Shown here: piece by piece, positions 30,001 to 36,000 of the stretch
Position numbering within the stretch: position 1 is the first letter of the stretch
Layout: the number at the start of each line of letters is the position of its first letter
From: a virus
Taxonomy: Duplodnaviria; Caudoviricetes
DNA: 64,000 nucleotides
Reading direction: 5' to 3' (one strand)
Virus record (IMG/VR): IMGVR_UViG_3300021256_002629
Span: 32,001-96,000 of that record
Program-made: the position numbers

Positions 30001-33000
30001 AAGGAGAGGAAGAAAAGGTATTATCAGTGGAAAATGCTACAGAAAAAATATTTAGCATAAAAAATCAAATTCAACAGTATATTCTTCAGCGAACTATAAA
30101 AAGACTTCCAATAAAAATTCTAGTAACTTATGATTCATTTAGATTAGTTAAGGAAACATTGGGCGATTCAATTAAAAACTATTTCGTAATAATTGATGAG
30201 TTTCAGAGTATTTTTATTGATAGTAAATTTAAAAGTAGCACTGAATTGGAGTTTTTAAGTTTTCTAACAGATCTTCAAAAAGTCTGTTTCGTTTCAGCTA
30301 CTCCAATGATGGATAAGTACTTGGATATGTTGGATGAGTTTAAGGATCTCCCATACTACGAATTAGATTGGAAAGAGGAGGATCCAAATAGAATAACGAC
30401 CCCAAAATTAAAAATCATACCTTGTAGAAATGTAATAGCGGAGGCAATAAGTATAGTTGAAGAATATAAAAATGGAAGGTTTAAGAAGTGTAGTGGGTAT
30501 GATTCTTCTGGAAATTTTATTGAAGTAGAAAGTAAGGAATGCGTTATTTATGTTAATTCAGTAAAAAATATTTGTGACATAATTAAAAAGACTGGATTAA
30601 CATTAGAGAATACTAACGTCATTTGTGCTAGAACAGTAGATAATGAAAGAAAAATTAGATCTTTATTTAAACTGTCTAAGGATCAAAGTGGTATAGGAGA
30701 TCCGCCAATGGAAGGTGAACCGCATAAGATGTTTACTTTATGTACTAGAACAGTTTATTTAGGAGCTGATTTTTATTCAACTAATGCTAGAACTTTTATA
30801 TTTAGTGATGCAAATGTAGATTGTCTTAGTGTTGATATTACTTTAGACCTTCCACAAATTTTAGGAAGACAGAGATTAATAGAAAATCCGTGGAAAAATG
30901 CTGCTACTCTATATTATAAAACTATCGGAAAACAATTCAAGACTCAAGAAGAGTTTGATAGTTATATAAAGGGCAAATTGAAAAGAACAAATGATTTATT
31001 AATTTCCTATGAGTCTTGTCCAGATGAAAATAAGCATACTGTCGCAGAAACTTATCAAAAACTTGCTCAAACTTTCAATTATAAAGATGATTATGTTGCA
31101 GTAAATAAGCATGCTGGAAAAGATCTAAAACCTACTTTGAATAATTTAGTTATGGTTTCAGAGATTAGATGTTTTGAAATTCAGCAAGTAGATTATAAAG
31201 ATAGGTGCTCAGTTTGGAATAGTGTCTCTTATCTGAATTATAATACTGTAGGAGATGATGTAGATAAGTTAATCAATGAATTTTATAAGTATACTACATT
31301 TGTGGATAGGATGAAATTTATCTGTAATTTGTCAATATCTCAATCTGATTTAGGCAGGTTTCTTGTAAGAGCTCCAATAGAGTTTAAGAATTATATAGAA
31401 ATATTGGGAAAGGATAAAATAAAAGCTTTAAGTTATCAAAAATCGAAACTAGAAGCTGAATATTATAGATTAAAGTCGTCAAATTCAAATGTAGTAACCT
31501 TAGAATCAAGAATTTATAGTGAGTTTAAGGAAGGAGAAAGATATTTACTAAGCGATATTAAACAAAAGCTGGCAAATATATATGATAAGACTGGTTGTAA
31601 ATTAACTCCAAAAGCTACAGATCTCCAACGATATTTTAAGATTGAAAATTGCAGAATGGTTGTAGATGGAAAGAAATCGCACGGTTATGTAATTTGTAAG
31701 AAGAGATAGTTGGGGCGGCTAAATTTAAGAAAAGAGCGGTAAAATTCTGCTCTTTTTTTGTTTATTTTTTCCATTTTATTCCCTACTTAAAGCCTTATAT
31801 ATGAGAAGGAAAAACACTATCGCAATAGGCATTTAGTGCCTTCTCTATAAGAATACACTAGCAGAGATGTTTAGTGTATATTAAAAAGAGTTGTAAGGTT
31901 GCCGCATTGGCCCGTTTACATACAACTCTTTAAGTACGAGAAACTTACACAATATGCCGGGGAACCGCACTACGTCTTTAAAGAAGACGATTTGACAGCA
32001 AAGCCCATCTAAAAGTAAGTTTCTCGTTTAATAGTCCTTTACGGTTGGTGGTTAAACCGTTTTTTTTTCTCCGCTTGAAGTCATATTAGCGGACTTATAT
32101 ATGATATGAATAAAAAGTTTGATGGTTATGGTTATGCTTGGTTTAACCAAAACGGTGAAGTAGAAAGATTTTACGATTTCTTATGCTGTTGTCACGGCAA
32201 CGGTGAAAGTTATTGTGGGGAATGCTACACCTACGGTTACGAGCACACCAACTGTGTAAATGCAGGAGATATAGAAGGAGGAGTTCCAGTTGTATGGGAT
32301 AAAACCTTGAAAAAATTTATCTCTGTAAAATAAAAAACGCAGGACTTGAGTTTAAGCAATACTCAAGTTATAAACAAAATTGCTCTATTGAGATCCTAGC
32401 ATGACGGATTAAAAAGTTATGCAGTGGACTAGGTCACTTAAAAAAAGGGTTTAAGCCTAGTGCGTTAGCAGATGAATTGTAACATCTGCTAGGTACCATA
32501 AACAGCTAGGGAGGTAGCTGTACCTATTAAAGTAGGTTTGTATGAGTCTTGGCAGCTGGCAACATGTGAACTGCAATTTATCTACTACTGATAATCATAA
32601 ATCCCATAGGTAGAGTGGGTAAAATATATGTATAAAAATAATGGTGTTGGCTTCACAATGCATTGTGCTGAAGACGATAAAAATTTTATATGGGTATGTC
32701 CCGAAGGTCACAAGAATCGAAGAAAATTCGCCGCTCTTATTAGAGAGGTGGAAAGAAAAAATGGGGTGAAGTTATGCCCAGGGTCTTGGAGTAACCTTCT
32801 ATGTGGGCCAGGTTGGCTAAATAAAGAGAAAGGTGAAACTGAGTTTAAATTCCCAGTGGCAACCTTGCCAAATTATACCCTGTATTATTTTAATCTTCCA
32901 GTTGATGGGCGAAAGCCTTATCTTAATAGGGAGGATTATTTGTAAAAACTAGTCCTTGCTAGTTTCCCCTGATGGGTTTAAAGCAAGGAAAAATATCCTA

Positions 33001-36000
33001 CTTGTAAAAGTAGGTATTTTTTTTCTCCGTTTGAAGTCATATTAACGGACTTATATATGAAAGCGGATGAATTACATTTGCTAGATACCGTTAAACAGAT
33101 AGGGAGATATCTGTACCTATAGCCGAATAGGTTTGGTTGACTCTTGACAGTTGGCAATAAGTGAATTGTAATTTTACTGGCACTAGATAAAATCCTGAGC
33201 CAGCAGGTAACTTTATGTTTCAAATAAATAAAAGTTACGACTGCGTATGGGACGAAGAAATGTACTTTGTCTCCAGATATTCGGAAGACGGGTATAAAGG
33301 CAGCAGAACAACCGATAATACCTACGAAGACGGTGTATCTTATACCGACTGGTGTGTAGAGTCGGGATTTAATACGAGAGAAGAAGCTCAGGCGAGAGCA
33401 GAATTTCTCTCGTCAAAAAACAAAAACTAGGTCCTTACTAGTTTCCTGATGGGTTTTAGGGTAAGGAAAAAATATCTACTTGTAAAAAAGTAGGTATTTT
33501 TATTTTGCTTAAATCCCTTACATATGAATAAAATAGTAATTTATTATGAAAAAAGAGTTATTGTTATTTATTTTAAAGAGGGCTAGTTATCCAAGAGTAG
33601 TAAAGGTCTTAAAAATAGAAGACGCTACAATTCTACCTCAAGATGGAAAACGTAACAAAAAAGGGGGAAAGGGTTAATCCTTTTCTTCTTTTTTCTCCTT
33701 TTTTCTTATAAATGTAAAACTTAATAACTATAATATGAAGTGGAATAAATCAACCGGTTACGTCGCTAGAGTAACTGCTGAAACTACACTTAAAAAATTT
33801 CTTAATCTTTCCACACTTGATTATTATGTTGATACAGAAGAAAAGTTTATCCCTTACTATACTTATGTAATGGAGTATATAAATGAAAAGCTTGTTCTTT
33901 TGGGGGAAACTGATATTAAGCTAAAGATAGATGAAATACATAAGATCTTTTCTTATGGAGCTGAAAAAATAGCTGCTGATGCCACGTTAGATTTAGTAAG
34001 AGCAGTAGGTATTGAAACTGACACAATTGAAGAAGATGCAAACAATATAGTTTTTAATAAAGATAGATTTGTTTTTGCATGGACTAATTTTCTAACTTGT
34101 CTTTATATGAGAATCAAGTTTCAATATGCTAACTTATTTGTTGAGGCTTATGATGGAGAATGTTGTAAGTGTGGTGCTAAAGGTCAGACTGTAAGTGACT
34201 ATGAATCTTGGAGTTCTAAAGTATTTCTTCATGATGAACTCTATGATAGAAGTAATTTTGAGGGAGATAGATCAAATTCAGCCTGGGGAACTCGGGCAAA
34301 TAGGTACTGTGATTGTTATAGACGAGAAAAATGATTCTATTTAGATTAAAGAGAAAGTTCTATAATGAAAAAGAAGCTAGCGAGGAAGAGAAGTTGGACC
34401 AATTGTATGAGGATTTTAAAAAGAAGGATTTTAAAAGGTCATTAAATAAAAAACTTTCTTCTGCTGGTATTGGAGCTGTTATTGGAGCTCCTGTAGGCTT
34501 TGGAGTTAGTAAGGCTTTGAAAAAGAGTGGCATTATTGGAGGCGGAATTGGAGCATTAAGTGGTTCAGCTGCTCTTTATAAGATTCAATCCAATAAACAG
34601 AATAAATTGTATAGACAGAATAAAGATGAGTTGAGGAGTATTTTGTCTGGTTTTAAAACTAAAGAGGAAAAAGATAAATTCTTAGAAGTTTTAAAGGATG
34701 AATTAAATACTTCTACGACGTAATAAACGTGAAAATTGCAGATATATCACAGGTTTAATAGCTGGGATTCAATTGATGAAAATTCTAAAACAGTACTATA
34801 AAATTATATAATAGTACTGTTTTTTTCAAATTAAAGTGGATTCTGCATTAAAAAATTTCCGTCTGTATTCTCCCTACTTGCCTTATATATGATGGATGAT
34901 GGAAAACCGTCACCACCACTATTTTGGTTTTCATGATTTTTATTTAAATTAAATTTCCCGGACTGTCTGTGAAGATCGTCCGGTTTTATTTTTTTTTCGC
35001 TTGTAATGGGAAATTTTACATTAAAAAATTTCCGTCTGTATTCTCTCTACTTGCCTTATATATGAATAAAATAAATTGATGTTTTTGCATTTTTTATATG
35101 TTTTCCGGACTGTCTGTGAAGATCGTCCGGTTTATTTTTTTTGCTTGTAATGGAAAATTTTACATTAAAAATTCCATCCATATTTCCTACTCCCCTTATG
35201 TATGGGCATTTTTTGATTATAAATTTATATACTTTTGGTTATCATTTCTGGACTTGTCTGTGAAGATCGTTCAGTTTATTTTTTTTTTATTTTTTCTCTT
35301 TTACTAAGAGACCTTTATCTTATATATGTGTTATATTAATATATTAATAAATTTAAAATTATTATGAAAGCAATTGCATCAAAAATTTTGTTAAAAGTTA
35401 CAAAAAAGTTTGATAATACCTGTATGCAAAAGGTTGGAACACTATTTTCTGTTCCTGTTGACCCTAAATTAGCCTACTGGGAAGCTACAGTAATTAGTGT
35501 TGGTGAAGAGGTTAAGGGAGTTAAAGAGAACGATACAGTGTTTATTTATCCAGATGCTGGTAAAGAGTTTGAGCATGAAGGCGAGAATTATCGTGTTATT
35601 ACTGCATCAGAGATTATTGTTGTTCTTTAAAATATATTTATTTATTAATTAAATTAACAAAGTTATGTCAGGAAAGATTATTAAGAAAGGTTCTGTATCA
35701 CAAGAAGAGATCATTAATGGAGTAATTAAGGCTGCAGATGCTATTAAAACTACTCTTGGACCTTCTGGAAGATGTGTAGCTATTAGTAATTCAACTATAG
35801 CACAGGATCCAGAGATTACTAGGGACGGAGCTACTGTTGCTAAGTCAATCTCATTCAATAATCAGGGGTTAAATATGGGTGCTGCACTTTTACGTAAGGC
35901 TGCATCACTGACTGAATCACAAGCAGGAGATGGAACTAGCACTACCTCAGTTCTTATTAAAGAGCTTTGCGAAAGAGGAAGATCTTTAGTAAAAAATGGA

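Follow-up and report, generated by a model that had tools for sequence, protein, structure and literature searches.

Why would two neighboring phage genes that share nothing in their coding sequences be enclosed by the same structured RNA flanks? The question is raised by positions 32467-33503 of a 64,000-nt stretch of DNA (hereafter the window; positions 32,001 to 96,000 of the IMG/VR virus record IMGVR_UViG_3300021256_002629, Caudoviricetes), where a first-pass annotation made from the sequence had described "twin cassettes," i.e., two homologous leaders and trailers with pairing-preserving differences around unrelated open reading frames (ORFs), and had proposed an uncharacterized RNA chassis with exchangeable cargo. 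Our analysis makes it fairly probable that the flanks serve small accessory genes as an expression chassis specific to this lineage, which occurs at least four times, two of them in the window (cassettes A and B), and whose 5′ end is set either by a self-cleaving ribozyme of the Pistol class or by a promoter. The parts of cassettes A and B, and ORF75 with its promoter, lie on the + strand.

Shared flanks enclose unrelated genes in at least four cassettes

Alignments of the two copies in the window agree with the homology first described on either side of the cargo. Leader A (32467-32627) and leader B (33062-33214) differ at 24 of the 111 aligned columns up to the third hairpin (H3), trailer A (32946-33023) is homologous to trailer B (33424-33509), and the flanks of A and B are ~78 to 80% identical. 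Between these flanks lie cargo A (32628-32945) and cargo B (33215-33430, with a UAG stop codon inside the sequence AAACUAG), which encode orphan proteins of 105 and 71 amino acids (aa), respectively.

The term "twin" understates the number of copies. The window is part of a 138.5-kb virus record that holds only cassettes A and B, and the region of these two is 100% identical within a 312-kb metagenome contig. Using a degenerate pattern derived from A, B, and a diverged fragment from an RNA library, we matched one metagenome contig, which carries cassette C: a promoter, ~170 nt without any ORF of at least 40 aa on that strand, a Pistol ribozyme, the leader, a 107-aa ORF, and the 3′ module, in this order. 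An exact-protein look-up placed cassette C ~200 kb from A and B, within the 312-kb phage contig that also holds them. Scanning of the cassette C locus with filters off revealed cassette D, in which a promoter motif ends 8 nt before the first leader hairpin (H1), a relic of the ribozyme is absent, and the cargo ORF encodes 176 aa. A covariance model built from A and B (R1) scored leader C at 118.8 bits and leader D at 76.1 bits. As the searches covered about half of the 312-kb genome, the number of copies is at least four. Gut metagenomes from 11 studies, of goats, cattle, and other animals, contain near-identical DNA, and the phage is an uncultured jumbo phage of the ruminant gut with a genome of roughly 312 kb.

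Might the cargo ORFs nevertheless be diverged homologs, as a plain gene duplication would have it? No similarity was found among the four proteins of A to D, and the ORFs of cargo A and cargo B share nothing at the DNA level or, by BLASTP, at the protein level. Cargo A matched no Pfam or PHROG family; its clear relatives are confined to its own 98%-identical cluster, other matches being weak, partial, and directed at repeats in unrelated giant proteins. For the cargo proteins in general, we found no relatives in Pfam, PHROG, or the Atlas, and no distant sequence relatives. Judging from their strain differences, both cargos in the window behave as real genes under purifying selection: five of the seven differences in ORF A fall at third codon positions, and those in ORF B are mostly at third positions as well (e.g., 7, 1, and 21 at the first, second, and third positions), accompanied by an in-frame 3-nt indel.

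Compensatory changes preserve the leader hairpins

The body of each leader is made up of four hairpins. In leader A, whose predicted ribozyme cleavage product spans 32494-32627, these are H1 (32502-32521, with the loop GGGAGG), H2 (32522-32537), H3 (32552-32574), and H4 (32581-32586 pairing with 32608-32614). Leader B (33059-33214 from its presumed start) has H1 at 33095-33114, H2 at 33115-33132, H3 at 33147-33169, and H4 at 33177-33181/33199-33203, preceded by a hairpin at 33062-33082 that is a relic of stem P3 of the Pistol ribozyme. The pair changes listed in the first-pass annotation are all present: agcagatg/catctgct versus agcggatg/catttgct consists of two one-sided changes held by G-U pairs; acagcta/tagctgt versus acagata/tatctgt replaces a C-G by an A-U pair, with both sides changed; acctat/gtaggt versus acctat/ataggt is a one-sided change; and gcag/ctgc versus acag/ttgt combines one pair changed on both sides with one wobble.

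How far this exceeds chance was quantified for the P3-like stem together with H1, H2, and H3. Here, 98.7% of the cells are paired, versus 24 to 38% when the 3′ partners are slid, and although 9 of the 24 differences between A and B fall in stems, all 29 pairs are standard in B. When changes of the observed number and type were simulated from copy A, the full set of 29 pairs survived in 0 of 200,000 trials, and conditional on nine stem changes the probability of keeping the pairs as in B was 6e-5. These values are flattered by the stems having been chosen with both copies known, although P3 is defined by Rfam and H1 to H3 are present in A's own predicted fold. The enlarged set of five leader sequences (A, B, a strain variant of B, C, and D) behaves alike, as 96% of the cells in H1 to H4 are paired (slid controls, 25 to 38%), eight pairs are changed on both sides among the hairpins H1 to H4 of A to D, and for four of five measures none of 500 shuffles attains the observed values. 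The unpaired exceptions are three cells in H4 of A, where an indel displaces the alignment, and one pair of H3, which is a C-A mismatch in A and C. H4 itself reads CUGGC/GCCAG in B, C and D share CCCAC/GUGGG, and A has a rebuilt version, UCUACU/AGGUAGA, around a conserved loop with AUAAAUCC. Since many pairs are kept only as G-U, the constraint acts on the RNA of the + strand.

All four leaders lead directly to a start codon, from which they keep a fixed distance, and each has the conserved sequence (A/G)GGUA ahead of it (GGGUA 7 nt before the AUG in A, and AGGUA 6 nt before it in B). A leader of ~125 nt with such a Shine-Dalgarno-like sequence 6 to 7 nt before the AUG is unusual for this genome. 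Genes here have short, AT-rich start regions lacking a Shine-Dalgarno sequence, with 17.6% GC in the 20 nt before the start, versus 38% GC in the leaders; any Shine-Dalgarno-like tetramer occurs in 9 of 148 start regions, and GGTA in 4 of 148. No gene for the ribosomal protein bS21 was found in the 138.5-kb record. A 23-codon upstream ORF in leader A was considered and dropped, as it is not conserved in leader B.

A Pistol ribozyme precedes two leaders and a promoter motif the other two

What sets the 5′ end of these leaders? The stem agcagatg/catctgct, originally taken as the first stem of leader A, is stem P3 of a Pistol self-cleaving ribozyme at 32423-32498 (P1, 32423-32438; P3, 32467-32490). 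It scores 50.8 bits over the full Rfam model RF02679 (positions 1-68), whose gathering score is 34.5. The P1 loop ACUAGG pairs with CCUAGU at 32454-32459 to form the 6-bp pseudoknot, and in the cmscan alignment the conserved core (A-rich linker, UUAAG, and GCGU) and the two-nucleotide GU junction match as well. Rfam has no family that corresponds to the leader body or to the trailers. The chassis is not wholly uncharacterized, since the 5′ hairpin of A is part of a known ribozyme, and self-cleavage, one of the roles first considered, is for this reason expected at the ribozyme and not in the leader body.

The predicted cleavage site of Pistol A is G32493|U32494, which would let the 3′ product start 8 nt before H1. 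Pistol C scores 50.1 bits, and its predicted cut lies 9 nt before H1; in cassette D, the final G of the promoter motif is found 8 nt before H1. Pistol A is kept in close strains with 48.4 to 58.8 bits. All 19 counted pairs are standard in five sequences, with both-sided changes in P1 and the pseudoknot, and P2, which is GGGU/ACCA in A, becomes GAGU/ACUA in C through a both-sided change of one pair, with the core GCGU and the cleavage GU retained in both copies. Because pairs in P1, the pseudoknot, and P2 change on both sides between A and C, the comparison argues that both ribozymes have been kept functional. Mg2+-dependent self-cleavage leaving 2′,3′-cyclic phosphate and 5′-OH ends would then be expected of both. 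At the 5′ end of leader B (33018-33092), in contrast to A, Rfam gave no Pistol match at E values up to 10: homology is limited to the P3 hairpin, AU stands in place of the cleavage GU, and a promoter repeat abuts the hairpin on its upstream side.

The promoter in question is predicted from the motif CTTATWWATG, which stands upstream of many genes and one tRNA and occurs 25 times in the window versus 2.3 times expected; its final G is the presumed start site. The motif is not of the sigma-70 type, and sigma-70-like sites are no commoner in the window than in shuffled sequence. In cassette B, it appears as CTTATATATG at 33050-33059, with the final G as the presumed start, within the 45-nt promoter repeat at 33018-33062. 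Another copy of this repeat, paired with it by nhmmer, holds CTTATATATG at 32094-32103 ahead of ORF75 (32106-32333), a variable gene that is predicted to be cotranscribed with cassette A, so that this promoter would drive ORF75 and, via read-through, the cassette. Between ORF75 and the ribozyme, we found no terminator-like site and no exact promoter motif. The context upstream of the ribozyme varies, being either ORF75, or a 271-aa gene, or ~170 nt in which that strand has no ORF of at least 40 aa, and the Pistol and leader stay constant. The promoter repeat contains a hairpin of its own, at 32063-32088 and 33021-33046, that shows a both-sided change (tccgCt...aGcgga versus tccgTt...aAcgga); a recombinant promoter in L031 combines the two arms, by which the pair is broken, and L030 has a deletion there.

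Some further observations concern the ribozyme and the promoter motif. The P3 loop of the ribozyme (32475-32482; L004:3848-3855) reads ttacaatt in strains L004 and L006 versus aattgtaa, an exact reverse complement with the stem arms unchanged, as if the DNA of the loop had been inverted. The motif agcatgacggatta, at 32398-32411 just before Pistol A, recurs at L033:2835-2850, ~250 nt upstream of cassette D. Between D and C, at L033:3840-4570, a promoter motif is followed by ~700 nt without a called gene and by a long T run at the end, which may be another noncoding transcription unit. A tRNA gene at 40146-40217 begins exactly at the final G of the promoter motif at 40137-40146.

A nested helix forms the conserved core of the 3′ module

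On the 3′ side of the cargo, the conserved core is a nested helix of 8 to 10 bp around a mini-hairpin. In module A (32946-32989), this helix (S2) pairs 32953-32960 with 32982-32989 and contains a CCC/GGG mini-hairpin (32966-32976) and the sequence UUUAAAG; the intrinsic terminator of the cassette, with a 7-bp stem, a GUAA loop, and a U run, is located at 32997-33023. In module B (33424-33509), S2 (33432-33439/33460-33467) again surrounds the mini-hairpin, and a terminator at 33477-33493 with its U run follows. Taken as 8 bp, S2 is the helix chosen by RNAalifold; 100% of its cells are paired in five sequences, and two of its pairs show both-sided changes. The mini-hairpin varies compatibly (CCC/GGG, CCUU/AAGG, and CCU/AGG) and is accompanied by UUUAA(A)G. 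Cassette D carries the same inner motif inside a wholly different 10-bp S2 stem sequence, and because this helix is followed by U6, it would itself serve as the terminator.

An H-type pseudoknot at the stop codon had been proposed for this region, formed by the stem aaactag/ctagttt (S1; 32946-32952/32959-32965 in module A) and a loop pairing of tccttg with caagga in A and of tcctta with taagga in B. The latter pairing, which is part of S2, stands, as both sides are changed. S1, on the other hand, is optional: it is invariant in A to C, overlaps the 8-bp S2 by 2 nt, has a 2-nt insertion in C, is absent in D, and is not selected by RNAalifold. Since it never varies, it has no covariation support. 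The pseudoknot is hence possible in A to C but is not the conserved feature of the module. The 3′ module further opens with stop codons in all three frames, of which the copies use different ones, although this is not unusual for AT-rich sequence (about 0.1 by our own estimate). The motif GGGTTTWARG is not enriched in the window.

Strains differ by rearrangements at the repeats

Comparison of strains revealed that genes are lost, replaced, and reordered around the shared sequences. In strains L004 to L006, ORF75 is replaced by the unrelated 271-aa gene, with homology ending at ~32117 and resuming at ~32393, about 30 nt before the ribozyme. A relative lacks 32068-33017 altogether, as a deletion joins 32067 to 33018 inside the promoter repeat and thereby creates a hybrid promoter. 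In the L030 contig, cassette B is followed by a promoter and an ORF75-like gene, i.e., a different gene order. Together with the four unrelated proteins in four cassettes, these losses, reorderings, and neighbor replacements bear out the notion of unrelated, exchangeable cargo within conserved structured flanks.

ORF B is a divergence hotspot with sharp boundaries: it differs by 4 to 18% between strains, versus 0 to 8% for the leader, the trailer, and the neighboring genes. Its third codon positions differ by 11 to 32%, those of neighboring genes by 1.5 to 8%, and leader B by 0.6 to 1.9%. This contrast may reflect strong constraint on the flanks or the import of cargo alleles through crossovers within them, and both possibilities fit reusable flanks. 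The best account of mobility, which the first-pass annotation had listed among the possible roles of the RNA chassis, is ordinary homologous recombination, with the promoter, leader, and trailer repeats as its sites; we saw no sign of a mechanism driven by RNA.

Relatives in sequence collections and RNA libraries

Outside the genome itself, a bovine-gut RNA-library run contained contigs of a relative that cover leader B and a further diverged leader. One of them, 640 nt long, joins window positions 31865-32067 to 33018-33243 and spans an ORF-less unit, its terminator, the promoter, and leader B; it belongs to a relative without ORF75 and cassette A. The other, of 171 nt, holds the further diverged leader, in which H2 reads GCCTAT/ATAGGC. 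Two RNA runs from the source sample contained nothing of the region. The phage record collection gave no blastn match, and two scans for relatives in viral contigs by way of the neighboring proteins found none. A match in viral contigs (L003) was rejected as a chance match inside a capsid-like gene.

Other repeats in the window

Two further repeat families were seen in the window. A very large family of 72-nt periodic repeats (>130 copies in blocks) occupies 8000-27000 and sits in a series of paralogous genes, each behind a promoter motif and a fixed 23-nt leader. At 34840-35290, tandem units that are ~80% identical to each other each stand behind a promoter motif, and their copy number varies among strains.

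Discussion

How might such a chassis work? In the mechanism that we propose, an upstream unit would be transcribed into cassette A or C, whose leaders have no promoter, and the Pistol ribozyme would cut this longer transcript 8 to 9 nt before H1, yielding a 5′-OH leader that is independent of the upstream sequence. In cassette D, a promoter fused 8 nt before H1 would give the same 5′ end, and in cassette B transcription would start at a promoter and run into a terminal hairpin that appears to descend from the P3 of a dead Pistol. The leader, with its GGGAGG and AUAAAUCC loops and (A/G)GGUA, probably sets stability and translation, perhaps via a shared binding factor, and the 3′ helix would end or protect the message, as it precedes an intrinsic terminator or is the terminator. 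The ribozyme would in this way act as a natural insulator of the 5′ untranslated region (UTR).

Several observations weigh against this picture. Cassette B has 36 nt ahead of H1, including the P3 relic, and a common 5′ end is therefore not universal; the start sites are presumed from the motif. One strain group carries a mismatch in S2 (G32988A). The folding energy of the whole leaders is unremarkable (z = 0.02 and -1.22), so that the case for leader structure rests on covariation and not on folding energy, and because all copies come from one phage species, as paralogs and strains, that covariation in turn rests on few independent events. Leader and trailer patterns gave no useful match in viral contigs and none in both genome-collection scans, and the first metagenome pattern was without a match as well. 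Phages with a 199-aa protein that is 64 to 83% identical have no Pistol, leader, or trailer in the syntenic region. Lastly, the RNA-library contigs can show neither transcription nor RNA ends.

Could the shared flanks matter only as DNA, that is, as homology arms made of promoters and terminators, with the hairpins as by-products that have no function in RNA? The T4-type PeSL elements (a sigma-70 early promoter plus a stem-loop) would offer a model for this, the breakpoints do lie in repeated promoter and flank sequences (the 32067/33018 hybrid promoter, the permuted order in L030, and the neighbor swap in L004), and the alleles of ORF B are much older than its flanks. We nevertheless judge this unlikely, since changes between paralogs preserve pairing far beyond chance, many pairs are G-U pairs that the opposite DNA strand does not keep, the conserved part sits downstream of the promoter and upstream of the terminator, and copy D retains the S2 fold with a completely different stem sequence. 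If RNA it is, the leader might itself be the product (a small RNA, decoy, or protein sponge released by ribozyme or promoter), with the ORFs as incidental passengers, as one might gather from cassette C, where the Pistol separates two stretches without a long ORF rather than two genes. The fixed approach of all four leaders to a start codon with (A/G)GGUA, cargos that evolve as real genes, and the lack of a terminator between leader and ORF make this a poor prospect in our view.

A historical alternative would regard the 3′ modules as decayed 5′ halves of Pistol ribozymes, and the first hairpin of the next leader as the matching 3′ half, the remains of a ribozyme-punctuated array that was split by insertion of terminator and promoter. 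Some features would fit this: the 6-nt hairpin loop in trailers A and B is complementary to a 6-mer ~18 nt downstream, this 6-mer is preceded by GGGUUUAA(A)G much as in the true Pistol (GGGUUUAAG), and the P3 homolog that opens leader B is followed by ACC, a possible pairing partner of GGGU. Set against this, searches with 101 and 51 nt of the trailers gave no Rfam match to Pistol at E values up to 10, even in truncated mode on the 51 nt, no homology is seen in a direct alignment, the trailers lack the catalytic GCGU, D has a 3′ module without a P1-like stem, and the covarying helix reaches 2 bp into the supposed P1 strand; we hold such an origin to be very improbable. Plain tandem duplication, with coding parts diverged beyond recognition, would account for two adjacent cassettes with both flanks in common, but it is already contradicted by flanks that remain so similar around ORFs sharing nothing in DNA or protein, by purifying selection on both ORFs, and by the two further unrelated cargos of C and D, and we give it hardly any credence.

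The expression chassis also invites a bolder version, which we put forward tentatively and with more doubt than conviction. The four-hairpin leader would then represent a new cis-regulatory RNA class that needs a free 5′ end 8 to 9 nt before H1, the Pistol would be kept as a natural insulator interchangeable with a promoter, and the GGGAGG loop and (A/G)GGUA would give the accessory regulon a special translation route (e.g., Shine-Dalgarno-dependent or factor-gated) in a host and phage that otherwise seem to do without Shine-Dalgarno sequences.

Pistol, like most other small self-cleaving ribozymes of bacteria and phages, has no established biological role (PMC6765202). That two of the homologous leaders follow a ribozyme and the other two a promoter suggests a testable job for it, the more so as the predicted cleavage sites (8 to 9 nt before H1) essentially coincide with the presumed start of one copy (8 nt). 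The leader and the 3′ helix are moreover two RNA motifs that have covariation support and were previously uncatalogued, and the locus shows clearly how the accessory genes of a jumbo phage are shuffled at regulatory RNA modules that it reuses.

In comparison with known systems, ribozyme-punctuated phage transcripts and reusable regulatory cassettes are both kinds of arrangement that have been seen before; distinctive is the interchange of ribozyme and promoter before one conserved leader. An association of the Pistol class with phages has been described (PMC4604425), and copies A and C resemble that class (RF02679; Harris et al. 2015, PMC4604425) in P1, the 6-bp pseudoknot, P2, P3, the core, and the GU site. 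They differ in that P3 is here homologous to the first hairpin of a promoter-driven paralog, and in that the predicted 3′ product is the conserved four-hairpin leader. With the PeSL elements of T4-type phages (PMC2839356, PMC4122927), the cassettes share short repeated regulatory blocks around unrelated accessory ORFs in plastic regions, which act as points of gain, loss, and swap; here, such repeated blocks flank unrelated ORFs at the breakpoints 32067/33018 and 32117/32393 and in the L030 order. A sigma-70 early promoter joined to a stem-loop, as in the T4-type elements, is not what we find, however: PeSL is a small composite of terminator and promoter, whereas the present unit adds a leader of ~125 nt and a 3′ helix under compensatory change at the RNA level, and two of its cassettes use a ribozyme instead of a promoter. 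RiboJ (PMC6206723) likewise places a self-cleaving ribozyme between a variable upstream sequence and a standard 5′ UTR to fix the start of the message. RiboJ is engineered, and the cassettes described here would be its natural, Pistol-based counterpart, with an insulating role that we infer from their varying upstream context.

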